Origin: a virus
Taxonomy: Duplodnaviria; Heunggongvirae; Uroviricota; Caudoviricetes
Length of the DNA: 64,000 bases
IMG/VR virus record: IMGVR_UViG_2565956726_000008
Reading direction: 5' to 3' (one strand)
The notes under the pieces were generated by a model that saw only the letters and a program-made list of their open reading frames with translations, was not told the DNA's origin and ran no database searches. Of the stretch, positions 1 to 22,102 are shown one piece after another. How positions within the stretch are numbered: the stretch's first letter is position 1; each line of letters starts with the position of its first letter. The translations under genes and the position numbers were made by a program.

Positions 1-660
1 GAAAACTTCTGGTTCTGGCAGAATTACGTGAAGGTGGCCTATCAGCGCGGCACGGCACAGGAATATGCCAACCTCGCTAACCAGTCTGTCACGTACTCAA
101 GCGCCTACCCTGATGTATCTGCCGTGTTATCAAGCACAACTTACCGCACCCGCCTTGCCCTGGTACGTACCCGTGTATTTGAGGAAATGCGCGGGCTGAC
201 CGCACAGATCAAAAAGGATATGGCAAGAAGATTAACCGAAGGTATGGCACGCGGTTTAAATCCACTGGAAATAGCGCGCACATTGAATCAGGAGACGCGG
301 TTACCGCTATACAGGTGCAAACGTATTGCCCGAACTGAAATATGCACAGCGTTACGCACAGCGCGTATGGATGAGGCAGAAGCGGCGACAGAAGAATTTA
401 ATCTGCGCACTATGCAAATGCACATTTCGGCATTATCACCGACTACCAGGCTATCGCACGCGCAGCGGCACGGTAAAACATACACCATAGATGAGCAGCG
501 CGAATGGTGGAGTAGATCCCCTAATTCAATTAACTGCAAATGTAGCACGATTACCGTATTAGTTGACGAAGACGGTAACATATTAAACGAACGAATATTA
601 GATCTGGCGCAAGAAAACTATAAAGTTGCGCACGCTAAATATGGCGAAGATTGGGAGTAA
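1..660 (+). CDS. phage head morphogenesis protein (Mu F / SPP1 gp7-like), 5' end outside window
   Basis: Reading frame is open from nt 1; sits immediately upstream of scaffold and capsid genes. Confidence 0.5.
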   Translation, partial: ENFWFWQNYVKVAYQRGTAQEYANLANQSVTYSSAYPDVSAVLSSTTYRTRLALVRTRVFEEMRGLTAQIKKDMARRLTEGMARGLNPLEIARTLNQETRLPLYRCKRIARTEICTALRTARMDEAEAATEEFNLRTMQMHISALSPTTRLSHAQRHGKTYTIDEQREWWSRSPNSINCKCSTITVLVDEDGNILNERILDLAQENYKVAHAKYGEDWE

Positions 661-1934
661 AAACCGTGAGTAAAGAATTAATTCAGGTTAATACCAAATT
701 AACCGCTAATACCATACGCCGGGAAACGTATAACGGGCGGGAACATATTGTTGTTCCGTCCTACACGTTACCCTTTAACATCGTAATGAACCGGGAATAT
801 TACCCGGAAGCTGAAATTATCGCTAATTACCAGTCACTGGAGGGTACGCTTGCCCCGCTGGGCCATCCTACCGTTGACGGTAAATTTGTTTCAGCATTTA
901 GCCCGGAAGGATTAAACACGGGTTTTTGTGGTGCGTGGAACAGAAACGTTGAGTTACGCGGCAACCGTGTTTATGTGGAAAAATGGGTGGATGTGGAAAC
1001 CGCCAGCCATTCAAGCCAGGGCCGCGAATTATTAGCCAGACTGGAAGCACTGGAGAAAGGAGAAAGCAAAGATCCTATCTGGTCGTCCGTCGCTGTATAT
1101 CGCCAGCGTATGCCAGCCACCGAAAAAATGAAAGCCCAGGGTGCTGACCATGTAGTGAAAATCATGTCGATCGACCATGACGCTATCTTGCTGCATGAGC
1201 CGCCAGCCGCTTCGCCGGAACAGGGCGTAGGCTTAATGGTTAATACCGACCAGGCGAAGCCGTTAATGGCGGTGGCAATGAAAGAAAATAGCTATCGCAC
1301 ACTTGAAAAACAGTTAACCGCTGCCGCGCGGGAAATGTTCCCTGACGCTGATTACGTATACGTGGTGGACTTCACTGATAGAGAGGTGACGATCGCCACT
1401 AATGAAAACTGTGCGGAAAGATACAACTACGAAAAACAGGCTGATAAAATTATTCTCAATAATGGCGAGCTTGCAACCAACGAGGAAAGTAAATCATGGT
1501 TTGCTCAGTTCGCTGAACACCTTTCTAATCTTTTCTCCCTGAATGAAAAAATTAAGGCCAATAAATCGGAGGACGATCCCATGCCTTTGACAAAAGAAGA
1601 ACGCGCCGAACTGGTAAAAGAAATTAACGAAGGCTTATCCGCCAATATCGCTAATGCAGTAGCAGAGGCATTAAAACCAGTACAGGCAAGCGTTGAAGAA
1701 TTACAGACCAATCAGAAAGCGATTAAAGAAGAGATCGCAGCAAACGCAAATAAAGAAGAAGCAGAAAAACGCGCCGCAGTAGCAAAAGTACACGGCGAAA
1801 TTGTTGCTAACGCATTAAGCGGTGAAGCATTAGAGGCAATGTTTAAATCCCTGGGTAAAGCAACTCCGCTAGCCGCCAACACAGCAAGTGAAGACAAAAA
1901 AGGTGAAGTCCCTGACTTTAACACTTATTTCTAA
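651..1934 (+). CDS. capsid scaffold / prohead protease-like protein (DUF2213-type) with C-terminal coiled coil
   Basis: 427-aa ORF (probable real start GTG ~666 after GGGAG); Ala/Glu/Lys-rich coiled-coil tail; position before capsid gene. Confidence 0.45.
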   Translation: MGVKTVSKELIQVNTKLTANTIRRETYNGREHIVVPSYTLPFNIVMNREYYPEAEIIANYQSLEGTLAPLGHPTVDGKFVSAFSPEGLNTGFCGAWNRNVELRGNRVYVEKWVDVETASHSSQGRELLARLEALEKGESKDPIWSSVAVYRQRMPATEKMKAQGADHVVKIMSIDHDAILLHEPPAASPEQGVGLMVNTDQAKPLMAVAMKENSYRTLEKQLTAAAREMFPDADYVYVVDFTDREVTIATNENCAERYNYEKQADKIILNNGELATNEESKSWFAQFAEHLSNLFSLNEKIKANKSEDDPMPLTKEERAELVKEINEGLSANIANAVAEALKPVQASVEELQTNQKAIKEEIAANANKEEAEKRAAVAKVHGEIVANALSGEALEAMFKSLGKATPLAANTASEDKKGEVPDFNTYF

Positions 1935-1948
1935 CTGGAGGGAATACA

Positions 1949-2377
1949 ATGTCTCGTTTTTGTCGTGTAAATATTGATGGTAAATCCATTACCGAAACCT
2001 ACACTGCTAAGGTCGCAGTAAAACCAGGTGAACTGGTAAAACTGGACGGAGGTGAGTTTGCAAAAGCAACCAGTGCTGATGTCGGTGCAGCTCAGTTGTA
2101 CATCGTCAACCCGGCATTCCACGAAGGCAAAACCATTACTGATGCAATCGCTGCAAATGAAACTGTTGTTGCTGATTATGTGGAACAGGGCCGAGAGTTT
2201 GCTCTCCTTGTTCCTGCAGCCGCTTATGTTAAGGGTGCAGCTATTGCTCTCGCAGCCGACGGGGTGAAACTGTTTGTTGCGCCAAGTGAACAGGCAGCGC
2301 CAGATCCGATCATCGCATACTGCCAGGAAGACGTAACCCTGGAAGCGGAAGATTTTATCCGCGTTCGCGTTGCTTAA
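1949..2377 (+). CDS. phage head structural protein (decoration-like)
   Basis: 142-aa ORF with GGAGG RBS between scaffold and major capsid genes. Confidence 0.4.
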   Translation: MSRFCRVNIDGKSITETYTAKVAVKPGELVKLDGGEFAKATSADVGAAQLYIVNPAFHEGKTITDAIAANETVVADYVEQGREFALLVPAAAYVKGAAIALAADGVKLFVAPSEQAAPDPIIAYCQEDVTLEAEDFIRVRVA

Positions 2378-2394
2378 TTTAAAAGGGGAAAAAC

Positions 2395-3459
2395 ATGTAC
2401 TTTACAAAAGAAAACCTTGCCACCAACGCCCGTATGCAGGGCCATTGGAAAGAACTGTGGGCGCAACGCAATATCTTCAACGAGCAGCACAACGCCATGA
2501 TTGCAGCAAATCAGGCAAATATGACCGCTGAAATGTTGACCTGTAACGCCGTCGGCGGCTTCGCAAAAGAATTCTGGAAAGAAATCGATAACCAGATTAT
2601 CGAACTGAACACCGAAGAAATCGGTATTGAGATCGTAAACGACCTGATGGGTGTGCAAACCGTGCTGCCAGTCGGTAAAACGCTGAAAATGTACAACGTA
2701 TCCGGTGACATCAATGATGAAGTTGTGATGTCTATGGATGGTCAAGCGCCACACGGCTTTGATCACACCGAATACGATAGCGATGGCGACCCGATCCCGA
2801 TGTTCGCGGCTGGTTACGGTGTTAACTGGCGTCTCGCTCAGGGCTTGAATACTGTAGGCATCGACCTTGCCCTGGATAGTCAGCGCCTGAAACTGAAAAA
2901 ATTCAACAAAGCACGCGTCCAGTTCTACCTGAATGGTAACGATCGCATCGTGGTTGATGGTCATAAAGCTATGGGTATTAAAAACCACAAAAGCACCCAG
3001 CAGCTTAAACTAAAAACCGTCGCAAAAGTCGACCTGACTACTGCGGTTTTCGACAAGATCATTGACTTCTTCACCGTTGGTGAGTTCGGCAAGCTGGCTC
3101 GCGCCAACTTCGTAGCTAAATACGACGTCATGTGGGTATCGCCTGAGATCATGGCTAACCTGGCCCGTCCACACATCGTCAATGGTGCTGTAGTCGGTAG
3201 CGTGCTGAGCGTCATTATGCCGTTCGCTCCGGTTGGTGAGATTCGCCAGAGCTATGCATTGTCCGGCAACGAGTTCATTGCTTATCAGCGCAGCCGTAGC
3301 GTAATTACCCCGCTGGTTGGTATGACTACTGGTGTTGTACCGTTACCGCGCATGATGCCGACTGATAACTACAACTTCCGCATCATGTCCGCTGAGGGTC
3401 TGCAAATCACCCGTGACATGGAAGGTCGTTCAGGAGTGGTCTACGGCAGCAATACCTGA
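2395..3459 (+). CDS. major capsid protein (prophage A)
   Basis: 354-aa ORF with strong RBS, followed by a strong intrinsic terminator; gene order scaffold-decoration-capsid. Confidence 0.6.
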   Translation: MYFTKENLATNARMQGHWKELWAQRNIFNEQHNAMIAANQANMTAEMLTCNAVGGFAKEFWKEIDNQIIELNTEEIGIEIVNDLMGVQTVLPVGKTLKMYNVSGDINDEVVMSMDGQAPHGFDHTEYDSDGDPIPMFAAGYGVNWRLAQGLNTVGIDLALDSQRLKLKKFNKARVQFYLNGNDRIVVDGHKAMGIKNHKSTQQLKLKTVAKVDLTTAVFDKIIDFFTVGEFGKLARANFVAKYDVMWVSPEIMANLARPHIVNGAVVGSVLSVIMPFAPVGEIRQSYALSGNEFIAYQRSRSVITPLVGMTTGVVPLPRMMPTDNYNFRIMSAEGLQITRDMEGRSGVVYGSNT

Positions 3460-5323: not shown

Positions 5324-5800
5324 ATGTCTCAGACTTGCGAAAAAGGCACGTTTACAGGCCGTGACGTTGCTGTATTCTTCGCTATCGCTTGTCCAAATGC
5401 GAAGCCGGAAGTTGGAGCGTACAAAGCGTTAGGCATGATGCGTGGTAAAACACTTTCCGTTGAATGGGAAACCGCTGACGCCACCGCCGATAAATCAGCC
5501 GATTACACGAAAGAATCAATGGTTACTTACAAATCCGTTTCTTTCTCCGGCGACGGTGTGTCCCGCACTGAAGAAATCCATAATCAGAAAGCGCTGAAAC
5601 GCCACGTAATTACGCCAGGTGAAACCACCGGATCACAACCTTATGTATGGCTGAAGATCGTTTCTCCTGTAGACGTAACTGAAGGCCCATTCCTTTGCAC
5701 TTCCTTTAAAGAAGAAGATCCGCATGATGATGTTTCCACCTGGTCTATTGAGTGCGAAAGCGCTGGCAAGGTAACGGTAGGCGACGTTCCGCCAGCATAA
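5324..5800 (+). CDS. major tail protein (prophage A)
   Basis: 158-aa ORF followed by intrinsic terminator; position before chaperone and tape measure. Confidence 0.5.
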   Translation: MSQTCEKGTFTGRDVAVFFAIACPNAKPEVGAYKALGMMRGKTLSVEWETADATADKSADYTKESMVTYKSVSFSGDGVSRTEEIHNQKALKRHVITPGETTGSQPYVWLKIVSPVDVTEGPFLCTSFKEEDPHDDVSTWSIECESAGKVTVGDVPPA

Positions 5801-5818: not shown

Positions 5819-5843
5819 GGGGCCATTTGGCCCCTTTTCTTTT
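5819..5843 (+). terminator. rho-independent terminator
   Basis: Hairpin ggggcc-attt-ggcccc followed by TTTTCTTTT. Confidence 0.5.
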
Positions 5844-5846: not shown

Positions 5847-6533
5847 GTGAATACTATGATCCATGTTCGTACAGGACAATTTGCTGCCGTGGTGAACGGT
5901 AAGCGCTATGAGTTTAATCCTTGCTTTGCTGCGATGGCTAAAATCGGCAACGATAGTGAGCTTGTCGAATATTTCGCACTTATCCACGGCGGCAAATATC
6001 CATCACGATTGCCAGCAGATCCAGACCTCCGCAATCGCATTATGGCGCGGTGTTATGGTGAGATAGTACAAACGTCAATGCGCATCCTGAAATGTTGCTC
6101 AGACGACGAAATAGCCCCGTTATTGGGTGAATGTAGGTCAACTTCTTCCGGCAAGTTACGACTAAAACCCGGACTGATGCCGACCAGTGACGTTATCACG
6201 CTGGCACAACATTGCATGTACCACGGTTTAATCGGTGACGGGCCAGAAGAAGACGCCGGAGAGATCCGGGAAGGGGAATATAAGCCGACTTTTAACGTGC
6301 TGGAATTCGTTTATTCTGCCGTAGCTCACCTGGGATTATCTGAATCAGAAGCGTGGAATATGACAATGACCGGATATAGGGCCGCTGTACGCGCTAAAAC
6401 GCCGCCAGAAGCAAGAAACAAACAAAAACGCCCAAATGTATTGCTGGATAAAAAGGCTTATGACGATGGAATGAATGGTGCTATGGAGATACTAAAAAGA
6501 ATGAAAAATCGCGAGCAAGAAAAAACCCGGTAG
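5847..6533 (+). CDS. tail assembly chaperone-like protein (putative)
   Basis: 228-aa ORF between major tail and tape measure genes; probable real start ATG ~5856. Confidence 0.35.
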   Translation: MNTMIHVRTGQFAAVVNGKRYEFNPCFAAMAKIGNDSELVEYFALIHGGKYPSRLPADPDLRNRIMARCYGEIVQTSMRILKCCSDDEIAPLLGECRSTSSGKLRLKPGLMPTSDVITLAQHCMYHGLIGDGPEEDAGEIREGEYKPTFNVLEFVYSAVAHLGLSESEAWNMTMTGYRAAVRAKTPPEARNKQKRPNVLLDKKAYDDGMNGAMEILKRMKNREQEKTR

Positions 6534-6558
6534 ATCCGGGCGTTTTTGTTAAGTTCGC

Positions 6559-6888: not shown

Positions 6889-7548
6889 TTAATTCCAGTT
6901 GCAAGCGTTTTTCACTTTGTCGATGTGGTTATAAAGACCATCAATGTTAAACACTGCTTTCTCAATGTCGCCAGCTTCCGGCACTGCTTCAATGATAAAT
7001 TGTTTTTCGTTAACCAGTTTTTTAATCATTGGGATGGCTTTTTTGCCGTCCCATAATCCAAGAGCTTTATAATTAGTTGACCGCCACCACTCAGTAGCTA
7101 CAGCTTTGTGATCGCCGATCCGGTAGTTAATATAAGTAGTGTCCCCAGCGTCAGTTACATGGTTTGACCATGCTACGAACATTTTTGTTTTATTACCCTG
7201 GCAAGCGATTGTTAATACAGGTTTGTTTTCATCCCGTGCTTTCAGTGTAGGGAAAGCATCAAGACTTCCGCTGAAATGTTCTGCTTTCACGAAAAGGAAC
7301 ACGTTTTTTGTGTCCTGCATATCATCTTTTCTTTCGACCACAAGCCACTGTTTACCAGCTTTTTCTTTTGCTAACTGTGCCTCATATGCGGCTTGTTTTG
7401 CTTGTTGTTCTGCAAGCCATTTAGCATTTTTCTCTGCTAATGCTTGTTGTTCTTGAGTGGTCACTATAGGCGCTTTTTCATTATCCTCATTGCAACCAAC
7501 CAGACCCAATACCGCCGCAATCATTGCCACTTTTGCTAACCGTTTCAT
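6889..7548 (-). CDS. outer-membrane lipoprotein (signal peptide, lipobox LVGC, Asn at +2), cargo gene
   Basis: N-terminus MKRLAKVAMIAAVLGLVGC-N; coiled-coil stretch then globular C-terminal domain; opposite strand to tail genes. Confidence 0.6.
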   Translation of the reverse strand: MKRLAKVAMIAAVLGLVGCNEDNEKAPIVTTQEQQALAEKNAKWLAEQQAKQAAYEAQLAKEKAGKQWLVVERKDDMQDTKNVFLFVKAEHFSGSLDAFPTLKARDENKPVLTIACQGNKTKMFVAWSNHVTDAGDTTYINYRIGDHKAVATEWWRSTNYKALGLWDGKKAIPMIKKLVNEKQFIIEAVPEAGDIEKAVFNIDGLYNHIDKVKNACNWN

Positions 7549-7675
7549 AACCCACCACGCTAACTTGATTTACTGACCATTCCCTTTGGCTTCTTTATAC
7601 AAAATGGAGTCGTTGAAGTAAAGCCATTTTGTATAAAATAGATACACAGATCACATTTTTGCATGAGGTTAAATC

Positions 7676-10018
7676 ATGGATACCAGTGTAGGTACAATTT
7701 ATTACGAAGTTGATGCGAAAACTAGTCAACTTCTCGTTGCACAACGACAGGCAGACCAGGCCTTTGGGCGTATAGAGCGCGGCGCAAAACAGGCTGACCG
7801 CCAGGTAAACACCCTGAAAACATCCATCAAGGCACTGACCAGGGTTATCCATTTGCTAATTGCTGCGGAGGCCGTGCGTCAATTCATGGATATGGCGGAG
7901 CAAGCAAAAATGCTTCGCGTAAAAATCAAAATGCTTACGGGCGATGCGGAGTCCGCCGGACGGGTTTTTGATGGCCTGAAAGCAATATCAAAAGAAACAG
8001 GCCAAAGCATGAAGGATACCGGGGATCTGTGGCAAGGCTTAGCTATCTCACTGAAGAACACGTCCGCCACTGAAGGGCAATTGCTTAACCTGGTAGGTAC
8101 GATTCAGAAAATGGGGGCATTAGGCGGCGCGTCAGCGGAACAGATGTCTAACTCAATGCGTCAATTCCGTCAGTCTATCGACGGCGGTGTTCTTCGTGCC
8201 GAAGAATTTAACAGCCTGCTTGAAAATACGCCGACCATCGTACAAACAATGGCCCGCCATATGGGATTATCAATGGGCCAGTTCCGCGCCGAAATGCTGG
8301 ACGGCAAGATCACGGCTGAAAGGATGGTTAACGCAATACAGGCGGCTACGCAGGAAACAAACGATAAGTTTGCTCAGTTGCCGCGCACATCCGGCATGGC
8401 TATCAATGAGCTTAAAGTAGAAATTATGGGCCTTGTTGAGCAGTTGGATGATCTTTTTGGCGTGTCAGATGGCGTTGTTTCAGCTATCGACTTGATCACG
8501 AAAGGCGTTAAAGGGCTTGGCGATGGCGCTAAATTCGCTAAAACCTGCTTCGACACACTCAAAACGGCTGGTAGCGAATTTATCGACATGTTTGATGATG
8601 TGGCTGTTAAGGCTGGAGAGGTGGCAGAGAAGATCATCGCAATGGTGACGCCAATCAAGGCGCTAATGGATGGCTATAAATGGATGAAGGAGGTAGTAGG
8701 AGAGCAAACCGACGAATATAACAGCAACTACGAGAAGAAATACGGGAAGACCGTTGGCAAGGTCATGCAACTACAGGATGATCTGACCGCAGCAATCCAG
8801 GCTACAGAAGAAGCAAGGAAAAATGAACAGAATGCTGCCAATGACGGAGCGATTACCGGATTCGACAAGCCAGTAGACAAGCCGAAAAAACAGAAAAAAG
8901 AGAAGAAATCGGAAGCTGATCGGCTTGGTGACAAAGGTATAAGCGTTTCTGATCAGTACAACAAAGACGCCGCCGCCATGCGCAAAGCGTTGGAGAACGG
9001 CAAGGCCATTGATGCTGCATTTGCCCAGGGTAAAATCACGCTCCTTGAGTACCGCGCCGCGCAAAAAGGGATCGGCAAGGAACTGAAAGAAGAATTAGCA
9101 CAAATTCCGGTAGATGAATTGCGTGATAAATGGTCACAAATAGTAAGCCCGATGGATCAGCTAAAAGGCGAAGTTGACCCCATCCAGCAGGCGCAAAATG
9201 AATGGGCCATCCGTAAGCAAATGCTTATAGACCTGGGCGCTACTGAAGCGCAACAGAAACAGGAATTGTTAGCCTATGAGCAACAGATCCGCGATCTGAA
9301 ATGGGAACAATGGCAGGCGCAAAGCGACACAAACGGCCTTATCGGTGATTGTGTTAATGGCCTTAAAGGCGGAATGAGTAATGCGCTTGTTGGCCTGTTA
9401 AACGGCACTCAATCATTGAGTGATGTTTTTGCTAACTTAGGAAGCAATATACTCGGCAATATCGGTAACAGACTCTCAGACATAGCTGCAAACTGGATAG
9501 CAGATCAGATCATGATGGAGACACAAAGCAAGGCCACGCAAACAAGTACAACAGCAAGCGCGGTAGCAGCTCAGGGAAGCATTGCTGCGGCGGCGGCCCC
9601 AGCAGCGGCGGCAACTGCGGCGTCAACTGGCGGTAGCTGGGCGGCGGCTGGTTCGGCGGCGCTCACTGCGATCATGTCGCTGGCTACGTCAATTTTCGGC
9701 GGCGGTCGCTTTAATGGTGGTAGCGTCATTGGTGGTAATATGTACCGCGTAGGGGAACACAACAGGCCGGAGCTATTCCAGACATCTAACGGCAATCAAT
9801 ATATGATCCCTGGCGAGAACGGCAGAGTTATTCCGGGCCGTGATATTGGCGGCGGTGGCGGTATTAGTATGCCTGTCAGTATCAGCATTCAGACCACGAA
9901 CGGATTCAGCGACGAAGACAGCCGCAGACTTGAATTAACAATGGAACGTGTAGCCATGAAAATGATAACAAGGGAATCTCAAAGACCAGGCGGAATGTTG
10001 CAACCTCGCCGCAAATAA
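7676..10018 (+). CDS. tail tape measure protein (prophage A)
   Basis: 780 aa, alpha-helical, Gly/Ala-rich C-terminal region; position before M. Confidence 0.8.
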   Translation: MDTSVGTIYYEVDAKTSQLLVAQRQADQAFGRIERGAKQADRQVNTLKTSIKALTRVIHLLIAAEAVRQFMDMAEQAKMLRVKIKMLTGDAESAGRVFDGLKAISKETGQSMKDTGDLWQGLAISLKNTSATEGQLLNLVGTIQKMGALGGASAEQMSNSMRQFRQSIDGGVLRAEEFNSLLENTPTIVQTMARHMGLSMGQFRAEMLDGKITAERMVNAIQAATQETNDKFAQLPRTSGMAINELKVEIMGLVEQLDDLFGVSDGVVSAIDLITKGVKGLGDGAKFAKTCFDTLKTAGSEFIDMFDDVAVKAGEVAEKIIAMVTPIKALMDGYKWMKEVVGEQTDEYNSNYEKKYGKTVGKVMQLQDDLTAAIQATEEARKNEQNAANDGAITGFDKPVDKPKKQKKEKKSEADRLGDKGISVSDQYNKDAAAMRKALENGKAIDAAFAQGKITLLEYRAAQKGIGKELKEELAQIPVDELRDKWSQIVSPMDQLKGEVDPIQQAQNEWAIRKQMLIDLGATEAQQKQELLAYEQQIRDLKWEQWQAQSDTNGLIGDCVNGLKGGMSNALVGLLNGTQSLSDVFANLGSNILGNIGNRLSDIAANWIADQIMMETQSKATQTSTTASAVAAQGSIAAAAAPAAAATAASTGGSWAAAGSAALTAIMSLATSIFGGGRFNGGSVIGGNMYRVGEHNRPELFQTSNGNQYMIPGENGRVIPGRDIGGGGGISMPVSISIQTTNGFSDEDSRRLELTMERVAMKMITRESQRPGGMLQPRRK

Positions 10019-10025
10019 ACTAAAT

Positions 10026-10050
10026 CCCGGTGCAATGCCGGGGTTATTTT
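10026..10050 (+). terminator. rho-independent terminator after tape measure gene
   Basis: Hairpin cccgg-tgcaatg-ccggg plus T-run; near-copy of the 3479 hairpin. Confidence 0.5.
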
Positions 10051-10532: not shown

Positions 10533-10623
10533 TTTGGGCCTCCTTCGTTGGTACTACTTTCTTCTTGCTTTCTATATACATCTTGTTGCGTGCTATGTGA
10601 AGCCATTTTGTAAACTAGCTATA

Positions 10624-10640
10624 ATCATTGTGACAATGAT
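10624..10640. promoter_or_regulatory. 17-bp perfect palindrome ATCATTGTGACAATGAT upstream of the TA-like operon (candidate operator)
   Basis: Read directly from sequence; about 90 bp upstream of the operon start. Confidence 0.4.
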
Positions 10641-11250: not shown

Positions 11251-11256
11251 ACACGA

Positions 11257-12012: not shown

Positions 12013-12181
12013 TTTTGTTAGCCTCATATTTGACAGGTTCGATCTGGTATCCCAAAAGGCGGTCATCCTCAGCAAGTAAAAGCGCGTCAACCAATGCTTC
12101 ACCCTCGTCGTCATACAGGGCGATAACCTTTTCCCTACCGTCTGTCATGAATACCGTCAACTTCCATAGCTTTTCAGTCAT
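11993..12181 (-). CDS. hypothetical small protein, gene 1 of M|L cassette
   Basis: 62 aa from ATG MTEKLWK (track ORF runs to 12301 from a TTG). Confidence 0.4.
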   Translation of the reverse strand: MTEKLWKLTVFMTDGREKVIALYDDEGEALVDALLLAEDDRLLGYQIEPVKYEANKNEKIQS

Positions 12182-12310
12182 AACGCACCTCCGCGCCATT
12201 TTGTTAACTATGCTTCCGTTTGAGTAAAATATACATATTGTAAAAACCGCGATCAATCCATTTTGGTATGATTTAGCGTGACGCAGATCACAGAATGACA
12301 AGGTGAGAAA

Positions 12311-13015: not shown

Positions 13016-13017
13016 TT

Positions 13018-13749: not shown

Positions 13750-14222
13750 ACGTTGATACGCCAGCACAAGGACTTAGCCTATTGACCGCGCAGAATCAGG
13801 AGTTCAAGAAGGCTTTTTTAAATACACCTTTGCGGTTACGGATTGCCGGGAAAGATTATAACGAAAAGACGGCCCCGGCAGCGGTTAATAGTAAATACCC
13901 TGACGGAACTACCGTCATTATTGCGCCAGTAGTTGAAGGCGGTATTGCTGGGATTGGTGTTGTAGGCTGGATCCTGATTGGTGTTTCGGTGGTTAGCGTT
14001 GCGTTCTCAATCTTTATGTCCCGCAACATGAAGATAAAAACATCGGCAGAAAGCGCACAAGATAACACCATAACGAACAACACCTACACCAGCATTGAAA
14101 ACAAGGTGGGCCAGGGTAGACCAGTGCCAATACTATTAGGTGAAATGAAAATAGGTTCAAACGTCGGATCGTTAGGCATAGACACAAGCAACAATAGAGA
14201 CGCCTTAGACGTTGTAAGTTAA
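13692..14222 (+). CDS. tail assembly protein I (lambda gpI-like)
   Basis: 176 aa; Gly-rich hydrophobic middle segment; position between K and J. Confidence 0.75.
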   Translation: MLKFRFTGNLRRYYGKVCLNVDTPAQGLSLLTAQNQEFKKAFLNTPLRLRIAGKDYNEKTAPAAVNSKYPDGTTVIIAPVVEGGIAGIGVVGWILIGVSVVSVAFSIFMSRNMKIKTSAESAQDNTITNNTYTSIENKVGQGRPVPILLGEMKIGSNVGSLGIDTSNNRDALDVVS

Positions 14223-14235
14223 CAGGAGAAAAACC

Positions 14236-17200
14236 ATGAGTAGCGGCGGCGGCAAAGCCAAAACACCAACATTATTGAACGATAACCTGTATCACAAACA
14301 GTTTTATCGTGTTTTAGATATTCTCAGCGAAGGGCCGATATACGGTCCGGTAAACCAGAAAGCGCCATTGAATGACGTGATGCTTAATGACACTCCTGTT
14401 ACTGACGCAAACGGGAATACATCAATTCCGGGGATTAGTATAGCCTGGCGCAACGGCACGGCTGACCAATCGCCGATTAATGGTTTTAACGCCATTGAGT
14501 CAACCGTTATTGTCAACGCAAAGGTAACTCACGACACACCAATAATCAGGACTGTTTCAGATCCAAACGTTACCCGCGTCAGGTTGAATCTTGGTGTTGA
14601 TGCTCTCGTTCAGTCAGATGAAAAGGGCAATCAATATAATACATCCGTCATGTTGATGGTTGATGTTAAACCGTCATCATCTTCTACGTGGTCGCTGATT
14701 AAAGACATACACATTGGCCCTGGTAAACAAAGCGGTGAATACCTGGAAGCTCACATCATTAAAGCGCCGGATGAAAAACCGTTTGATATTCGCGTTCGTC
14801 GCATAACACCAGACAGCAACGGCGATCTATTGCGGAATGATACGCGGTGGAGTAGTTACAGCGAAATAATAGATGATAATCTGTCTTATCCTCATACCGC
14901 TGTAGCTGGCGCCGTAATTGACCATGATCAGTATACTGATACGCCTACCCGCACCTATCACCTTCGCGGCCTGATTGTTGATGTGCCTGACAACTACAAC
15001 CCTGAAACGCGCACATATTCAGGTTTATGGCTTGGTGGATTTAAAAAGGCGTATACCAATAACCCTGCATGGCTTTTCCGGTATCTGGTTAAAAACGAGC
15101 GCTTTGGACTTGCTCGACATGCTGGTTACATTGATGTTGATGATGGCGCTTTGTACGTGCTTTCTCAATACTGCGATCAGTTGGTTGATGATGGCTATGG
15201 TGGCCTTGAACCTCGCATGACGCTTAACGCTTACATTACGGAGCAAATGAGCGCCCGCGACCTACTGGATAACATCGCAGGTATGTTCCGTGGTATCGCG
15301 TTATGGGACGGACAACGTCTTACCGTGATGATTGATGCGCCACAAGATCCAATCGCCACCATCACAAATGCAAACGTCGTTGATGGCGCGTTTACTCGTT
15401 CAAGTATCGCACGCGCAGAATGCTACAACGCCGTGATCGTATCCTGGACTGACCCTGAAAACGGCTGGGAGCAATCAAAAGAATATGTCGCAGATGATAA
15501 ACTAATCGCCCGTGATGGTTATAACGAAACCACGTTGGAGGCGTTCGGTTGCACTTCACGCGGGCAAGCGCACCGCGCTGGTAAATGGCTGATCGAAACA
15601 GCGAAACGCGAGCCGTCAAAATTCACATTTAAAATGGCCCGTGACGCCATTCACTTTACGCCGGGGGATATAATCGAGATCCTCGATAATAATCGCGCAG
15701 GCGCTCGTTTAGGCGGTCGCATCGTGGCGAACAATGGCAGAGCGATCACGGTCGACAAGGTTGATTCTGAATATATCGCGGCTGGCGACACCATCAGCTT
15801 ACTTGATAGCGATGGTAAATTTAAAAAACACCAGATCATCGGAGTTAACGGGAACATTATCACCCTTGCAGCCGCCCCGGCGTGGATTCGTAACGGCACT
15901 GTTTTTGCTGTATCAACCAACGCAGCAAAACCCGTTTTATGTCGAATCACCAGTGTAGCAGAAACAGAAAATAACAGCGTATACACCATCGAGGCCGCAC
16001 AGCATGATCCACATAAGCAGGCCGTAGTCGATAATGGCGCAATCTTCGAGATCAATAACGACACGCTTAATCACTTCCGCGTGCCGAACATTGAAAATCT
16101 GAAGGTGTTAAACGTTGGATCTGAAACGGTTCAATGTCGCGCAACATGGGAAACACAGACGACAACGCGTCGCCTGACCTTTGAGATTCGCGTGTATAAC
16201 GCCGAAGGCGCTGTAGTTAAAAGCTACGAAACCACGAATTACAGTTATGATTTTTATGGCATTGATGCTGGCAACTACTCATTAGGCATTCGTGGCAGAA
16301 ATGACACGGGCATGAAGGGTGCGGAAAGCATTGTCGATCTGGTTATTGGCGCACCAGCGGCCCCAGTTGGCGTTAATTGGGTTCCCGGTGTATTCCAGGC
16401 TACAGTTTACCCGATCAGCAGAACAACGCTCACCACTGATACCAGTTACGAGTTTTATTACTCAGGTGAAACGCAGATCACTGATCCGGCATCAATAACC
16501 ACTAAAGCACAATATACCGGGCGTGGTCATCAGTGGACGTTTGGCGGCATGAATACAGGTCACACATATTACGTTTATGTGCGCGCGCGTAACGCTTTTG
16601 GTGTGTCTGACTTTGTGGAAGCGTCAGGTAAGCCAACAGAAAACTTTGATGAAATTACCGATTACGTCACCAAAGACGTAATGAATTCCAAACAATTTAA
16701 AGAAATGGTTGGTGACATTAAAGATCTAGGCGACCGCACTGATCTTATCGAAAGCGCTACGAATGACCTTAAAACTGCTACTGACAACCTCAAAACTGCA
16801 ACTGATAATCTGACCAACATAACTGACGATTTAAGGACTGAAACTGACAACCTAACCATAGAAACAGGATCAATAAAAGCTGATACTGATACGCTCAAAA
16901 AAGAAACGGAAGATCTTTATAAAAAAGTTAAGGAAAACGCCGATGATATTGGACAGCATGAGTCGAGAATCGACTCGCTGGAGGTGTCTAGCGAAAAAGT
17001 TGGCAGCGAACTGGCGCAAGCAAAAGCAAGTCTGCAAAACGCCTCACTTGCTCTTATTAATAACTCGCTTGCACAGACTAACACTCGCGTAACTCTTACC
17101 GCTCAGTACAAGAAAGGCAGGACAGAGACGAAAGCGGAAATTGACCGCATTGACAACGTTATCGCTGAAGAGAAAAAAGCGACAGCGGAATCACTGGAAA

Positions 17201-19098
17201 CCATCACGGCAGAAATGAATGTGATGGACACAAACCTTAAAGGTCAGATCTCTAATGTGCAACGCGCAGTAGCTGACGAGGCCAGCGCCCGCGCTGAAGC
17301 TATTAACGGTGTAAATGCCTCAATAAGCAATCTTGACAAGAAAACTGACGCCAGCGTAAACCGTCTTGATCAGGCAATTGCAGACGAAACAAGTGCGCGT
17401 ACTCAGGCTATCAGCGACGTGAACGCAAGTATCTCAACACTTGACAAGAAAACTGACGCCAGCGTTAAGCGCCTCGATAATGCAATATCAGATGAAACGC
17501 AGGCAAGAAGCGACGCAATAACAGTGGTTAAAGCTGATTTAACAACGCTTGAAAATAACACAAATGCCAGTGTTAGCCGTCTTGATCAAGCTATCGCTGA
17601 TGAATCAAGCGCACGTGCTCAGGCGATATCAGGTATCAGCGCGACGCTTGGCGGCGTTAAAAGTGAGGTTGATAAAAACAGCGACGAGATAGATCAGGCG
17701 AAAGCAAGTCTGCAAAACGCATCTCTGGCGCTTATTAATAACTCAATGGCGCAAAGCAAGATGAGCACTGTTATTGAGGCGAAATACAGGAAAGGACAAA
17801 CAAAAACAAAAGCGGAAATAGCAAGGGTAGACACAGCAATCGCAGATGAGGCGAGCGCACGCGCAGAAGCTATTAGCGGGGTTAATGCGTCAATTTCCAC
17901 GCTCGATAGCAAGGTGACAAGCAACGTAACCAGGATGGATAAAGCGATCGCAGATGAGAAGAATGCACGCACTGACGCAATCAGCAGCCTTAACTCATCG
18001 CTTACCAGTACGATTAATTCGAAAGTATCCGAAGTGTCAACTGCACTTTCTACGCATGAAACATCAAGCGCGGAAAAATTTGGCCAGATCTCGGCATCTT
18101 TCGACGATGTAAACTCAAGCATCACGGAATGGTCACAGGCTATGGCAACGGCAGACGAGGCATTGTCAACCAGAATCGACCAGTTGAAAGTAACTATTAA
18201 CGGAAACACAACGGCGATAGAAACGACATCAAAAGCACTGACTGACTTCAAAGGTAACGTTGATGCGTCATATTCAATTAAGATTGCCACTGATAAAAAC
18301 GGTATGAAATACGCTACAGGAATGTCGCTCGGCCTTACTGGTAGCGGGACTAACGTTCAATCGCAGTGTATTTTCCTCGTTGACCGTTTCGTGCTTATGA
18401 CTGCGGCAGGTGGCTCCTATCAGACCCCGTTCTATGTTACTAACGGTGCTTGCTACATCCGTGATGCGTGGATCAGAGACGCATCAATCACTACCGCGAA
18501 GATTGCGCAGCAAATTCAGTCAACCAACTATAAAGCTGGTTCGGCTGGCTGGATGCTAAATAAAAACGGCAATGCGGAGTTCAACAACGTCACTGTACGC
18601 GGTACGGTGTACGCAACATCTGGTAAATTCACTGGTGAGATTCAGGCCACAAGCGGGAAGTTTAAAGGTACAGTAGAGGCAAAGTCATTTGTCGGTGACG
18701 TTGCTAACATGGGGGTTGGTCCAGATCGAGTGCTTGGGCATAACGGAAGTTATAGCGCAACCATCACATATAAAGACAGCACGGATAATGCATTGACGAA
18801 ATCAGTTATGCTTATGGCGACTATTTCATTAATGTCTGGTGAATATAGATCCACTTATAACGTAACGTTTAGTTGCGGAGATAAAAACAAAACAATTTCA
18901 TATTACGTGCCTTATGGTGGATGCACATTAACAGTGCAATGCGCTTTTTCTGGTTTAAAAGCATCAGATATTATCGGGAAAATATATTGTCCTCAAACAT
19001 CATCATCTGAAGGATACGCATATTGTACCGCGTTGTATTCTCCAACAATGATAGTAGCAAGAGGCACCGGATCATTTAGAACATCAACGACAGCATAA
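14236..19098 (+). CDS. host specificity / tail tip protein J with expanded repeat region
   Basis: 1620 aa; N-terminal ~990 aa collinear with lambda J (ISEGPIYGPV, FGCTSRGQAHRAGKWLIETA); central coiled-coil tandem repeats; distinct C-terminal domain. Confidence 0.85.
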   Translation: MSSGGGKAKTPTLLNDNLYHKQFYRVLDILSEGPIYGPVNQKAPLNDVMLNDTPVTDANGNTSIPGISIAWRNGTADQSPINGFNAIESTVIVNAKVTHDTPIIRTVSDPNVTRVRLNLGVDALVQSDEKGNQYNTSVMLMVDVKPSSSSTWSLIKDIHIGPGKQSGEYLEAHIIKAPDEKPFDIRVRRITPDSNGDLLRNDTRWSSYSEIIDDNLSYPHTAVAGAVIDHDQYTDTPTRTYHLRGLIVDVPDNYNPETRTYSGLWLGGFKKAYTNNPAWLFRYLVKNERFGLARHAGYIDVDDGALYVLSQYCDQLVDDGYGGLEPRMTLNAYITEQMSARDLLDNIAGMFRGIALWDGQRLTVMIDAPQDPIATITNANVVDGAFTRSSIARAECYNAVIVSWTDPENGWEQSKEYVADDKLIARDGYNETTLEAFGCTSRGQAHRAGKWLIETAKREPSKFTFKMARDAIHFTPGDIIEILDNNRAGARLGGRIVANNGRAITVDKVDSEYIAAGDTISLLDSDGKFKKHQIIGVNGNIITLAAAPAWIRNGTVFAVSTNAAKPVLCRITSVAETENNSVYTIEAAQHDPHKQAVVDNGAIFEINNDTLNHFRVPNIENLKVLNVGSETVQCRATWETQTTTRRLTFEIRVYNAEGAVVKSYETTNYSYDFYGIDAGNYSLGIRGRNDTGMKGAESIVDLVIGAPAAPVGVNWVPGVFQATVYPISRTTLTTDTSYEFYYSGETQITDPASITTKAQYTGRGHQWTFGGMNTGHTYYVYVRARNAFGVSDFVEASGKPTENFDEITDYVTKDVMNSKQFKEMVGDIKDLGDRTDLIESATNDLKTATDNLKTATDNLTNITDDLRTETDNLTIETGSIKADTDTLKKETEDLYKKVKENADDIGQHESRIDSLEVSSEKVGSELAQAKASLQNASLALINNSLAQTNTRVTLTAQYKKGRTETKAEIDRIDNVIAEEKKATAESLETITAEMNVMDTNLKGQISNVQRAVADEASARAEAINGVNASISNLDKKTDASVNRLDQAIADETSARTQAISDVNASISTLDKKTDASVKRLDNAISDETQARSDAITVVKADLTTLENNTNASVSRLDQAIADESSARAQAISGISATLGGVKSEVDKNSDEIDQAKASLQNASLALINNSMAQSKMSTVIEAKYRKGQTKTKAEIARVDTAIADEASARAEAISGVNASISTLDSKVTSNVTRMDKAIADEKNARTDAISSLNSSLTSTINSKVSEVSTALSTHETSSAEKFGQISASFDDVNSSITEWSQAMATADEALSTRIDQLKVTINGNTTAIETTSKALTDFKGNVDASYSIKIATDKNGMKYATGMSLGLTGSGTNVQSQCIFLVDRFVLMTAAGGSYQTPFYVTNGACYIRDAWIRDASITTAKIAQQIQSTNYKAGSAGWMLNKNGNAEFNNVTVRGTVYATSGKFTGEIQATSGKFKGTVEAKSFVGDVANMGVGPDRVLGHNGSYSATITYKDSTDNALTKSVMLMATISLMSGEYRSTYNVTFSCGDKNKTISYYVPYGGCTLTVQCAFSGLKASDIIGKIYCPQTSSSEGYAYCTALYSPTMIVARGTGSFRTSTTA

Positions 19099-19127
19099 AA
19101 AACGGGGCATAAGCCCCGTTTTTTTTT
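19097..19127. terminator. bidirectional intrinsic terminator
   Basis: AAAAA-cggggc-ataa-gccccg-TTTTTTTTT between convergent J and small secreted-protein gene. Confidence 0.55.
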
Positions 19128-19138: not shown

Positions 19139-19384
19139 TTATTTTTTACACCCATCATTTACACCAGAAAAATGGATAGGTAAATTACATTCACTGTCAA
19201 TAATTTTACCTTGTAGTTGTTTTTCTTTCCATGAGTCAGTATTGAAATAACTCGAACGTTGGTTATCAAGGCCAGTATCACCATATTGAGCAGTGCCAGC
19301 ATCACTCTTATCTGTCGAATTTACAGAAGCAAAAGCACCAAAAGACAGAGCTGATAAGATGCAAGCAACAATTAGTTTTTTCAT
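19139..19384 (-). CDS. small secreted protein (signal peptide, two Cys), cargo at lom-equivalent position
   Basis: 81 aa from MKKLIVACILSALSFGAFA; AT-rich; between J and tail fibre. Confidence 0.5.
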   Translation of the reverse strand: MKKLIVACILSALSFGAFASVNSTDKSDAGTAQYGDTGLDNQRSSYFNTDSWKEKQLQGKIIDSECNLPIHFSGVNDGCKK

Positions 19385-19581
19385 TGTATTCACCTTACTG
19401 TTTGTTTTACTGTCATTTGTTGTTCGTGATGATCCACCCATCCGATGAGCAAATCACCGCAGAAGCTATCATTTCGTATGTTGATATAGATCAAAAAATA
19501 CACTATGTATAAGCCCAAAGTGTAACACAGATCACAAAATGGTAGAATTGTTTAGTTAATTAACAAAACGGAGTTATTGCG

Positions 19582-21378
19582 ATGATTTACACAACAGGCA
19601 CTATAGCTGTTAGCGGAAACACAGTTACCGGGGCAGGGACTGAATTCAACGCCGCATTATCTCTGATCAGAGTGGGTTGCACTCTTATTGCCATTAGCGA
19701 TCCGGTGCAGATTTTTTCAATCACAAAGGTAAAAAGCGCAACAAGTTTGTCGGTAACTCCTGCGGCAAGTCCGGCTATTCCGGCTGGAACTAAATTTAGC
19801 ATCCTGCTTTCAGATTCGATCTCTGTGGATGGTCTTGCTCAGGATGTTGCCGAAACACTGCGTTACTACCAGGGCAAAGAATCAGAAATAGCTGACGCTG
19901 TGGAGTTTTTCAGCGACAACAAAGATGTGATTTCAGCATCAAAATTAGCATTAGCATCAGCTACCACTGCAACCAATGCGGCAACAACAGCGACAAGCGC
20001 CGCCGATTCAGCCAAGACATACAGAGACGAAGCCCACGAATACGCCAATCAGACCGCACAGCCTTACGCGTATGTTTTGCAACCGCTGCCGGACGTATGG
20101 ATACCGTTTAACGATTCTCTCGATATGATCACGGGCTACGGCCCTGGTACTAAAAAAGTAACCATTAATGGGGAAGAAAAAACAATATCATCAGATAAAG
20201 TTGTTTCTTTCTCACGCGCAAGCACTGCTACTTACATTAACAAATCAGGTGTTTTAACTGTGGCTGGTATTAATGAGCCACGTTTTGAACGCGAAGGATT
20301 ACTGATTGAGGGGACGCGCACAAACCTGTTAATAAACAGTACAGACCCTTCGAAGTGGAATAAGTCAACTTCACTGGACGTTACAGAAACAGGCACAGAT
20401 AGTTTTGGGTTTAATTATGGCCGGTTTGTCGTACAGGATTCGATTGTTGGTACAAGTAAAGCGCATACCATTATCGGACTGTATTCGAGTGCCGGAGGGG
20501 TTGATACTTCAGGGGACGAAAAGCATGTAACTATATCCTGTCGGGTAAAAAGTGAAGTTGATAATATCGCCGTTCGTATTTTATTTGAACATTATGATGG
20601 GGAGGTAAGGACATCAATAGGAGCAGCAAACCTGAACCTTACCACCCGCATAATTAGCAAGACAGGTCAGACAAGCCGTGTTACAGCAAGGTCTGTTAAG
20701 GATGATGCAACTGGCTGGATATTTTTTGAGGCTACATTAAAAGCAGATACAACAGAAAATACGGTTGGTGGTTTCGTCCAGTATTCTCCGGATACAGGTC
20801 AGATGGTGGCATCAGGGGATTGTCTCGATGTAACCACTCCACAGATTGAGGCTGGTGCAGGCGCATCATCTTTTATTGTTACGGGGTCGGCACCAGCAAC
20901 GCGGGCAAGCGATATGGTGACAGTCCCAATCAAGAATAACCTTTATAATCTTCCTTTTACGGTTCTTTGTGAGGTACATAAGAACTGGTATAAAACGCCA
21001 AATGCAGCGCCGCGTGTTTTTGATACCGGCGGTCATCAAACCGGAGCGGCGATCGTAATGGGGTTTGGTTCATCAGGTGGGTACGACGGTTTTCCGTATT
21101 GTGATATAGGTGGTTCAAACCGACGAATAAATGAAAATGCCGGGCTGGAAAAAATACTTATTGGTATGCGGGTAAAGTCCGAACGGTCCACATGTGTAGT
21201 CAGTAACGGTAAGTTAAGCAGCGAAACAAAAACAACCTGGACTTATATTCAAAGCTCCGCAACTATTCGTATCGGTGGTCAGACAACGACAGGACAACGT
21301 CATTTATTTGGTCATGTTAGAAATTTTCGAGTATGGCATAAGGCATTAACTGATGCGCAATTAAGCGAAATTGTTTAA
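19582..21378 (+). CDS. tail fibre protein (prophage A)
   Basis: 598 aa, Ser/Thr/Ala-rich fibrous N-terminal part, position after J. Confidence 0.65.
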   Translation: MIYTTGTIAVSGNTVTGAGTEFNAALSLIRVGCTLIAISDPVQIFSITKVKSATSLSVTPAASPAIPAGTKFSILLSDSISVDGLAQDVAETLRYYQGKESEIADAVEFFSDNKDVISASKLALASATTATNAATTATSAADSAKTYRDEAHEYANQTAQPYAYVLQPLPDVWIPFNDSLDMITGYGPGTKKVTINGEEKTISSDKVVSFSRASTATYINKSGVLTVAGINEPRFEREGLLIEGTRTNLLINSTDPSKWNKSTSLDVTETGTDSFGFNYGRFVVQDSIVGTSKAHTIIGLYSSAGGVDTSGDEKHVTISCRVKSEVDNIAVRILFEHYDGEVRTSIGAANLNLTTRIISKTGQTSRVTARSVKDDATGWIFFEATLKADTTENTVGGFVQYSPDTGQMVASGDCLDVTTPQIEAGAGASSFIVTGSAPATRASDMVTVPIKNNLYNLPFTVLCEVHKNWYKTPNAAPRVFDTGGHQTGAAIVMGFGSSGGYDGFPYCDIGGSNRRINENAGLEKILIGMRVKSERSTCVVSNGKLSSETKTTWTYIQSSATIRIGGQTTTGQRHLFGHVRNFRVWHKALTDAQLSEIV

Positions 21379-21388
21379 GGTGGTTAAC

Positions 21389-21655
21389 ATGAAAGACGTT
21401 AGCTTGCAATTTACTGACAAACAGCAATACAACGACATTGTGATTAATAGCGGCTGGCTGGATGCCAATTGGTCAACCGTGTTTATTGATGATATCGGTT
21501 TTGTCCTTGTATTCGACGATCCAGAAAGCGAGACACCTGTACTTATTGGGAAAAAAGGTTATTACGTCAACGTGCGTATAACTGGTGACGATGTTGATAT
21601 TTCTCAGCTTGAGCCTTTCATCGTTCCAGATCCAGGCGTCCGCGCATGGGCTTAA
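21389..21655 (+). CDS. small protein downstream of tail fibre (possible fibre assembly/accessory protein)
   Basis: 89 aa from ATG MKDVSLQF with GGTGG RBS; overlaps tail-fibre stop region. Confidence 0.3.
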   Translation: MKDVSLQFTDKQQYNDIVINSGWLDANWSTVFIDDIGFVLVFDDPESETPVLIGKKGYYVNVRITGDDVDISQLEPFIVPDPGVRAWA

Positions 21656-21697
21656 TGATGCGGCAGTGATAGCATGGTGATGTTGAAAGCATCGCCG

Positions 21698-21727
21698 AGA
21701 AACGAGGCTAACGCCTCGTTTCTTTTT
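21698..21727 (+). terminator. intrinsic terminator at end of prophage A tail operon
   Basis: Hairpin aacgaggc-taac-gcctcgtt followed by TCTTTTTGTG. Confidence 0.5.
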
Positions 21728-22102
21728 GTGTACCAAATAGTGACCAAATATCAAAAACTAAAATCAAAAACAACATAACATTATGTTTTATAAATGATTA
21801 TTCGTTACACTAATCATTCCAGACAGGACTGGTGAGTAAGTCCAGGGTATTGAAGTTGTGCGTAATCATTGAGATCCCGTTATTTTTATCAATTTTTGTT
21901 GCTATCCGATCGCAAAAAAGCCACGTCATATGATCAGATAATTCTGATAATGATAGACGCTATTTAACACTTCACACGGTTTGTATATGGAAAAGCATTT
22001 TGCTTTTTGTATTCAATTTAGACAGAATTTTATTAATCATTTCAGGGTAATGGGGTGATGAGATGTTGCGTAACAGGGCCAGAAGGCTAGACTACAAAAT
22101 AA

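Follow-up and report, generated by a model that had tools for sequence, protein, structure and literature searches.

The lambda-type tail module of a temperate mEp021-like phage carries, at four of its gene junctions, small groups of genes that are read against the direction of the tail genes. We propose that these junctions are conserved antisense sockets: two of them, in front of the tape measure gene and behind the tail-tip gene J, take exchangeable genes, and the other two hold genes that are fixed in the family. We put the probability of this reading at about 0.7. The window analysed here is the whole stretch of 64,000 nucleotides from IMG/VR record IMGVR_UViG_2565956726_000008, and its positions 1-21730 represent the head-completion and tail part (late/tail region) of a temperate siphophage of the mEp021-like group, named 'mEpimmI' in PMC11893012. 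The closest match is a prophage of E. coli M1/5 (L001; 98.8% identity across 5300-22000); the cultured phages mEp021, mEp044, mEp010, mEp554, mEp013, mEp515 and MagusPhagus are about 85% identical over 55-71% of the stretch. The four junctions are referred to as slot 1 (chaperone-TMP, where TMP stands for the tape measure protein, the equivalent of lambda H), slot 2 (TMP-M), slot 3 (M-L) and slot 4 (J-stf, stf being the side tail fibre gene); all features are listed in Table 1.

The comparison rests on 12 annotated loci and 90 more retrieved via the minor tail protein L with 10-kb flanks. An L identity of at least 85% defines the close family of 57 loci, and the distant set comprises 46 loci with 68-72% L identity from other Enterobacterales phages with lambda-type tails. 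Lengths of the junctions were taken from the 57 close and 46 distant loci, those of chaperone-TMP in the distant relatives being approximate, with tape measure starts inferred from partial matches. Gene content was determined by tblastn with 37 annotated reference proteins; junction tables based on greedily chosen longest open reading frames (ORFs) suffered from opposite-strand shadow ORFs and were discarded. In the close family, 51 loci were counted for chaperone-TMP, 54 each for TMP-M and M-L, and 49 for J-stf.

The lambda tail order, which an earlier reading made from the letters only (the sequence-only reading) had taken as its reference, was confirmed for the core genes by Pfam matches: tail terminator, tail tube, TMP_3, Phage_min_tail, Phage_tail_L, NlpC/P60 (K) and the J domains. 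The order V, H, M, L, K, I, J thus holds, with I assigned from its position and RefSeq name, and DUF6246 occupies the position of the G/GT frameshift chaperone. The ORFs that had been described as inserted at the four junctions were all found. They do lie on the opposite strand, as had been said of most of them, but the first ORF of M-L (11053-11250) is a plus-strand gene for 65 amino acids (aa). By tblastn it was detected in all close relatives but L039 (56 of 57) and in none of the distant ones; being on the plus strand and so widely kept, it is a core gene of the family and not cargo. The idea that the four islands are a trait of the lineage was borne out as well: essentially all 57 related loci have the same layout, with minus-strand genes at the same four junctions in mEp021, mEp010, mEp013, mEp044, mEp515, MagusPhagus, E. 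coli prophages and IMG/VR contigs, and RefSeq annotates the same island genes in the M1/5 prophage.

The islands have much of what marks a moron. The flanking genes are adjacent in relatives, and in the close family slots 1-3 are nearly always occupied. At the level of sequence patterns each island has its own terminator, a T-run hairpin at its 3' end. The base composition is unlike that of the neighbours, with a G+C content of 0.346-0.417 in the islands versus 0.447-0.499 in the tail genes, and the GC skew is reversed relative to the latter. Variable presence, in contrast, is seen for the genes of slots 1 and 4 and not for the ParE-like, 51-aa, KilAC, 115-aa and 62-aa genes of slots 2 and 3. 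Most island ORFs match PHROG or Pfam families. The ratio of nonsynonymous to synonymous substitution rates (dN/dS), calculated pairwise across alleles for the window genes except those for the 106-aa and 81-aa proteins, is 0.04-0.21 for five of them, the ParE-like, 51-aa, KilAC, 115-aa and TagO-like genes, which are thus under purifying selection; the estimate for the 62-aa gene is unusable.

Slot 1 is freely exchangeable and holds mostly genes for envelope proteins. Its length in the close family varies between 640 and 1319 base pairs (bp), and the 51 loci show 10 arrangements built from at least seven unrelated families: the TagO-like lipoprotein (accompanied by the 106-aa gene or by one for a 124-aa lipoprotein), mEp021 gp63, mEp044 gp91, mEp515 gp83 and others. 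Most of the products carry export or membrane features (signal peptide, lipobox or membrane helix), and dN/dS is 0.21 for the TagO-like gene and 0.13 for gp63. The exchange can be seen directly in near-identical backbones. Outside the swapped part, L013 is about 99% identical; the breaks lie at 6546 and 6874, and it is only the distal 106-aa gene that has been exchanged, for the 124-aa lipoprotein gene. In comparison with L021, identity is lost at 6551, at the hairpin, and at 7596, at the predicted minus-strand -10 element, and the whole island has been replaced. The TagO-like protein reaches 47 bits against TIGR03360, below the equivalog level (cut-off 124.2); a VasI/TagO identity in type VI secretion is not what we found, as the neighbours are phage tail genes and PF11319 is the only Pfam domain matched.

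At slot 4, the content of the junction follows the last 200 residues of J in the close family. The junction measures 108-1357 bp and occurs in seven states in the 49 loci: in 15 it holds the 81-aa gene of the window and in 17 Lpp type C; four loci have DUF6453, alone or together with Lpp type A, six have Cor plus one or two plus-strand genes, and seven have none of these. Five of the last seven are truly empty (108-113 bp), and two are 210-bp remnants of the window-type cassette. The 81-aa gene was found only with the J C-terminal type of the window (type 1), in 15 of 17 such loci, and the other two are the deletion remnants. Moreover, a 71%-identical homologue of the 81-aa protein is encoded in a different tail module, convergently behind a J-like gene whose similarity to J of the window lies mainly in the C-terminal 350 residues (35% identity, E 4e-58). 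The N-terminus of the 81-aa protein, MKKLIVACILSALSFGAFA followed by S, reads as a Sec type I signal, and its only lipobox-like string (IVAC, residues 5-8) is too near the start. For Lpp021 and Lpp010, which come from this slot, expression excludes phages that use the matching receptor (PMC11893012), and the dN/dS of Lpp type C is 0.07. By its position, its linkage to the end of J and these tested relatives, rather than by homology, the 81-aa protein is most likely a receptor-masking exclusion factor. The DUF6453 protein (mEp021 gp80; L002, 17966-18901) is marked as a virion structural protein in the mEp021 record. In the close family it is encoded on the minus strand at J-stf; distant relatives have the genes of this protein family downstream of J, on the plus strand.

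Slots 2 and 3 are of another kind: their main genes are fixed in the family, and variable additional ones sit next to the terminator. The TMP-M junction of the close family (681-2330 bp, 15 arrangements) has up to four optional genes, all added at the tape measure hairpin end. The ParE-like gene has reached saturation in its synonymous divergence (dS 1.3), and its homologues were found only in E. coli and in phage-sized contigs of the mEp021-like family. The protein matches Pfam ParE_like above threshold, and its gene is preceded at a distance of 17 bp by a small gene of the same orientation, as in ParE/RelE pairs, for which antitoxin-then-toxin is the usual gene order. It is this order that points to a possible toxin-antitoxin pair, and from its position the 51-aa protein may be the antitoxin; unlike the known pairs, this one is confined to a single phage family, and no antitoxin family in PHROG, Pfam or NCBIfam matched the 51-aa protein. 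A PDB sequence search with the ParE-like protein gave no match. In L016 (IMGVR_UViG_2563366998_000011; otherwise about 98-99% identical to the window), a gene for an IS200-type transposase of 169 aa (7122-7631) sits exactly at the tape measure hairpin.

The M-L junction (1175-1888 bp, 9 arrangements in the close family) likewise has its optional genes towards the terminator. The stand-alone KilAC-domain protein shares the C-terminal domain of the phage antirepressor Ant and lacks the AntA/BRO-type N-terminal domain; a KilAC-like protein is among the mEpimmI core genes (PMC11893012). Homologues of the 115-aa protein, again, were found only in E. coli and phage-sized contigs of the mEp021-like family. 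Conservation of this protein is highest in the C-terminal half, which is almost invariant (SMDQxCPGEIHAKGFPADDP...EYEKAAKDFCIDNL), and the N-terminal half varies. The AlphaFold model (predicted local distance difference test, pLDDT, of 67 overall) is confident only in an N-terminal beta-beta-alpha-beta domain; the low model confidence of the C-terminal half would be expected of a segment that folds on a partner. A Foldseek search of the PDB with this model gave nothing at E<1, the top small-domain match being T7 Gp2 (E 1.7, not significant). Sequence matches of the 115-aa protein to RecA in the PDB (E 6e-8) were rejected as an artefact of RecA fusion chains with a six-fold repeat, each repeat contributing 4.5 bits. 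In L039 (IMGVR_UViG_3300045988_076424, 9875-10001), the 65-aa gene, its hairpin and the whole M-L island have been lost; the promoter gap is fused to the stop codon of M, and 125 bp are left.

These two slots supply the arguments for the view that all four islands are integral, long-standing genes of the mEp021-like family which are needed for the life cycle, and that they appear as insertions only when compared with lambda. The genes at TMP-M and M-L are present in 50-54 of 54 loci with dN/dS of 0.04-0.19, dS of the ParE-like gene is high, homologues of the ParE-like and 115-aa proteins were found only in the family, and the KilAC-like protein stands on the core list. We nevertheless regard this as rather unlikely: the many arrangements and unrelated families of slot 1, the seven states of slot 4 including an empty one, the clean cassette swaps between near-identical backbones, the gain and loss of extra genes in slots 2 and 3, and the existence of L039 without slot 3 all argue against it.

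What stays constant at all four junctions is the frame around the cargo. Hairpins follow the tube, tape measure and 65-aa genes and J in essentially all close relatives, with a median folding free energy (dG) of -14 to -17. Those of the islands are G+C-rich, followed by a T run and directly behind the upstream tail gene, and the segment 5300-22100 contains 31 terminator-like sites as compared to 17.2 +/- 4.3 in shuffles. The islands had been described as bounded by hairpin terminators. This is true of the 3' end, where island and upstream tail gene converge, but at the other end lies a gap of 127-197 bp from which the island and the next tail gene point in opposite directions. That hairpins would persist where a junction is empty could be seen for J: the five relatives with a truly empty J-stf junction retain the J hairpin together with the stf leader. 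The tube-DUF6246 junction also has a perfect two-way hairpin and never cargo, and measures 35-46 bp in all close relatives; this hairpin may act as an attenuator and so determine how much tube protein is made relative to the products downstream.

The gaps before the tape measure gene, M, L and stf are near-invariant in spite of differing cargo and better conserved than the surrounding coding DNA. In slots 1-3 they contain predicted promoters for the islands, sigma-70-like -35/-10 pairs with 17-bp spacing located 34-40 bp upstream of the first gene. The minus-strand pair of gap 1, TTTACT-17-TATAAA (-35 at 7622-7617, -10 at 7599-7594), lies about 39 bp before the TagO-like start, and a plus-strand pair, GTCGTT-17-TATAAA, has its -10 at 7632-7637. 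Gap 2 also contains the motif GCCATTTTGT at 10602 and the small hairpin CGCGTAGAAGCGCG, and gap 3 has CCATTTTG at 12196 and 12258 and the CRP-like CGTGACGCAGATCACA at 12277-12292. Five of the eight window copies of ACAAAATGG/CCATTTTGT fall inside the 619 bp of gaps, as do all three copies of CAGATCACA. A window-wide enrichment of the 8-mer CCATTTTG was dismissed: most of its copies outside the gaps are coding or at gene starts, and only the longer gap motifs are meaningful. The motif ACAAAATGG/CCATTTTGT recurs in mEp021 (L103, 11900-11970 and 20060-20160): in the immunity region, once directly upstream of TTGACT-17-TATATT, downstream of and close to the repressor gene, and also on both sides of the terminator TERM_4 as part of a large palindrome. 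As this 9-mer occurs in the immunity region as well, it looks like a general promoter-associated motif of the phage. Only two sites in the 64 kb fit the CRP consensus TGTGA-N6-TCACA with no more than one mismatch; they lie in the gaps before L and stf, and weaker versions occur in the other two gaps (10629-10644 and 7651-7655). The centres of the CRP-like sites are about 60-72 bp upstream of the predicted minus-strand starts, a spacing that speculatively resembles class I.

Since gap and hairpin are conserved while the DNA between them varies, the junctions can be viewed as fixed sockets. The tail region would consist of five plus-strand blocks (tube and DUF6246; tape measure; M and the 65-aa gene; L-K-I-J; stf), each ending in a putative two-way terminator hairpin. 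Between them, four minus-strand transcription units would each start from a sigma-70-like promoter in the near-invariant gap, run back towards the preceding tail gene and be stopped at the hairpin of that gene before entering it. mEp021 encodes a Q-type late regulator, gp37, and late transcription therefore probably yields one antiterminated transcript that ignores the junction hairpins. The islands, on the other hand, would be expressed independently of it and, like classical morons, most likely in the lysogen. Homologous recombination in the flanks of a socket may then swap the genes in between. For slot 1, which has the position of HK97 gp15, exclusion by a block of injection is the likeliest role that we can suggest, and slot 4 would carry a factor matched to the receptor-binding end of the adjacent J. 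This mode of action is a proposal; what the comparison demonstrates is that layout and boundaries are conserved, how the contents have been exchanged and that the genes are under selection.

Several observations weigh against this interpretation. Promoter activity, strand and timing of the islands are read from the sequence. A promoter scan of the whole region found 26 candidates versus 31.5 expected in shuffles and thus no enrichment, a minus-strand promoter could not be placed convincingly in gap 4, and the plus-strand promoter-like elements in the same gaps raise the possibility that the tail blocks are separately promoted. The content of slot 1 showed no association with the tape measure or DUF6246 type (90% single-linkage), and the 81-aa protein showed no similarity in tblastn or Pfam to Cor or to Lpp of type A (PF24052) or type C. 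None of the island proteins was assigned to a defence family by PADLOC, and for the ParE-like protein the AlphaFold model (mean pLDDT 57.9) is too poor to confirm the fold. Finally, since L039 lacks slot 3 and the 65-aa gene, being fixed in the family is no proof of being essential.

The gaps could also have a more active part, as a dedicated regulatory device. They would be promoter cassettes, nearly identical and working both ways, which by means of the palindrome TATACAAAATGG-N16-CCATTTTGTATA and of CRP-like sites tie the antisense islands to host physiology and to the oncoming late transcription, and the ParE-like and KilAC operons would serve lysogeny or anti-defence control of the phage instead of being passengers. 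We consider this unlikely. If it were true, a promoterless gene that arrives between gap and hairpin would be expressed at once, in an integron-like 'plug-in' arrangement without an integrase.

Another possibility is that selfish mobile genes, homing endonucleases or insertion sequences, drive the variability and that the other genes hitchhike by gene conversion without being selected as cargo that benefits the host. Indeed, endonuclease-type genes are present in a few relatives: HNH genes at TMP-M, M-L and I-J, and at TMP-M a gene with a zinc finger and T5orf172 (GIY-YIG-type), which is intact in mEp013 and split in mEp021; to these comes the transposase gene at the tape measure hairpin of L016. 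However, mobile genes occupy few loci, and most cassette swaps have none nearby. The genes of slots 1 and 4 are under purifying selection (0.07-0.21), and the exclusion function of Lpp has been demonstrated (PMC11893012). We regard this explanation as quite improbable.

We assign a very low probability to the idea that the junction genes are virion or assembly components which are transcribed backwards as a part of the tail machinery. The sequence-only reading had named, as a finding that would overturn it, the same genes at all four junctions as invariant, virion-associated components. Invariance was seen at two positions only, and virion association is indicated for a single junction gene: the mEp021 record marks gp80, whose family moreover has plus-strand members downstream of J in distant relatives. 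But this J-stf gene is absent from the window, the mEp021 homologues gp67, gp68, gp71, gp73 and gp74 are unmarked in spite of 16 mapped virion proteins, and the products of slots 1 and 4 have export signals typical of host-envelope proteins. That the island ORFs are chance reading frames in long intergenic DNA can be dismissed almost entirely: some are very short (51, 62 and 65 aa), dN/dS of the 62-aa gene is uninformative and the 106-aa protein has no family match, but Pfam and PHROG matches, independent RefSeq and GenBank annotation, low dN/dS, reversed skew and packed spacing argue against it.

Chaperone-TMP, TMP-M and M-L are cargo sites across a wide clade, too. Of the distant loci, 27 of 44 have an empty TMP-M junction (-1 to 2 bp) and 19 of 45 an empty M-L junction (36 bp); the remainder hold unrelated genes on either strand. 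Their chaperone-TMP junctions range from 42 bp (L102) to 5.3 kb and contain genes for lipoproteins and antirepressor-like, Cor-like and TagO-like proteins. Varied genes are found after J as well, and no empty J-stf junction was seen among the distant relatives. What is special to the close family is that all islands are antisense and that two of them have fixed genes. The notion of the tail junctions as a cargo hotspot therefore holds for chaperone-TMP, for J-stf and for the wider clade, but not for the genes seen at TMP-M and M-L, which are fixed in the family.

The site between the chaperone and tape measure genes is the one to which the word 'moron' was first applied, and the product of the HK97 gp15 moron at this site, which is made by the prophage, prevents injection of the genome (PMC3594210). 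Slot 1 has the same junction in common with gp15, which has its own promoter and terminator, as is predicted for the slot 1 genes, and which like these differs in G+C content and encodes a small envelope protein. Unlike the YebO-like gp15, the window has a VasI/TagO-domain lipoprotein and the 106-aa protein; and in HK97 there is a single element of this sort, which most close relatives lack, whereas here the slot is always filled, antisense and one of four. The HK97 gp15 moron is reportedly also described in Juhala et al. 2000 and Cumby et al. 2012.

Slot 4 resembles the Lpp, Cor and T5 Llp systems: there, the gene is placed immediately after that for the receptor-binding tail tip, and which type is present goes with the receptor used (PMC11893012). 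Cor- and Lpp-type genes even occupy the J-stf slot itself in relatives of the window, but the 81-aa protein resembles a soluble protein exported by Sec more than a lipoprotein. In the P2 Z/fun and old/tin hotspots, unrelated accessory genes alternate between conserved genes, some of them tail genes (Rousset et al. 2022; 10.1101/2024.10.15.618418). Fixed positions and short terminator-bounded units are common to these hotspots and the slots. In contrast to them, there are four sites within 14 kb here, all antisense and with near-identical promoter gaps, two have fixed genes, and no known defence system was found in any island of the window.

Morons, phage hotspots, the chaperone-tape measure site and the J-stf exclusion genes of mEpimmI are thus already known. 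A family that is common in the human gut and has four antisense expression slots in one tail module appears to be undescribed, as do the conserved promoter gap and hairpin of each slot and the presence of family-invariant genes in two of them. In the 2025 mEpimmI paper the words moron, antisense and opposite do not occur, and most of the variable genes are placed in the regulation cluster (PMC11893012). Slots 1 and 4 are small, well-bounded places in which new exclusion factors may be found, and the linkage to the end of J offers a direct means to pair each exclusion factor with its receptor. The fixed ParE-like and KilAC operons, in turn, are candidates for functions that the mEp021-like family cannot do without.

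Table 1. Genes, hairpins and gaps of the tail region (positions in the window; locus counts refer to the close family).
Feature	Position	Strand	Remarks
Tail tube gene (V equivalent)	5324..5800	+	Pfam Phage_tail_2; RefSeq 'phage tail tube protein' in L001
Two-way hairpin GGGGCCATTTGGCCCC, tube-DUF6246 junction	5819..5834	.	51/51 close relatives; median dG -13.9
DUF6246 gene, tail-chaperone position	5847..6533	+	Pfam PF19759, E 2e-54; putative chaperone role, from position
Hairpin overlapping DUF6246 stop, left edge of slot 1	6526..6540	.	Median dG -11.6, 51 loci
Slot 1 distal gene, 106 aa	6559..6879	-	No family match or signal peptide; 8/51 loci
Slot 1 proximal gene, 219-aa lipoprotein, VasI/TagO domain	6889..7548	-	PF11319, 59 bits; 20/51 loci
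Control gap 1	7549..7675	.	Palindrome TATACAAAATGG-N16-CCATTTTGTATA at 7596-7635; near-invariant in 39 distinct relatives
Tape measure gene (H equivalent)	7676..10018	+	Pfam TMP_3
Two-way terminator-like hairpin after tape measure gene	10023..10045	.	54/54 loci, median dG -16.8
ParE-like gene, 84 aa	10105..10359	-	PF24732, 45.3 bits vs cut-off 24.4; 54/54 loci; dN/dS 0.07
51-aa gene upstream of ParE-like gene	10377..10532	-	phrog_29810; 52/54 loci; dN/dS 0.04
Control gap 2	10533..10699	.	Minus-strand TTCACA-17-TATATA (-35 10601-10596, -10 10578-10573)
Minor tail protein M gene	10700..11053	+	Pfam Phage_min_tail
65-aa gene	11053..11250	+	phrog_3249
Two-way terminator-like hairpin after 65-aa gene	11255..11275	.	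Median dG -16.0, 54 loci
Stand-alone KilAC-domain gene, 82 aa	11407..11655	-	PF03374, 29.4 bits vs 25.3; 54/54 loci; dN/dS 0.11
115-aa gene	11665..12012	-	phrog_38567; 54/54 loci counting three alleles; dN/dS 0.19
62-aa gene, first in M-L island	11993..12181	-	RefSeq-annotated in L001; 50/54 loci
Control gap 3	12182..12310	.	Minus-strand TTGATC-17-TATATT (12256-12228), also found by promoter scan
L, K, I, J tail-tip genes, unbroken in window	12311..19098	+	Pfam; L 12311-13015, J 14236-19098
Two-way terminator-like hairpin AAAAAACGGGGCATAAGCCCCGTTTTTT after J	~19097..19127	.	Kept where J-stf is empty
81-aa secreted protein gene, candidate receptor-specific exclusion factor	19139..19384	-	Signal peptide MKKLIVACILSALSFGAFA followed by S
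Control gap 4	19385..19581	.	CRP-like TGTAACACAGATCACA at 19521-19536; plus-strand extended -10 ACAAAATGG-TAGAAT
Side tail fibre gene stf (19582-21378) and 94-aa downstream gene	19582..21655	+	RefSeq names in L001
Final terminator of tail region, near prophage end	21697..21724	+	ynaN, zntB follow

For the island proteins, NCBIfam added nothing above cut-off to the Pfam and PHROG matches. A fifth junction, I-J, measures 13 bp in the window and contains a 571-bp plus-strand HNH gene in L002 (12183-12749), L007 and L022. According to the RefSeq annotation of the M1/5 prophage, ynaN, zntB and dbpA adjoin the prophage end. Past dbpA and ttcA, the rest of the window (24000-64000) contains an integrase gene on the minus strand (26074-27309) and, apparently, a second prophage.

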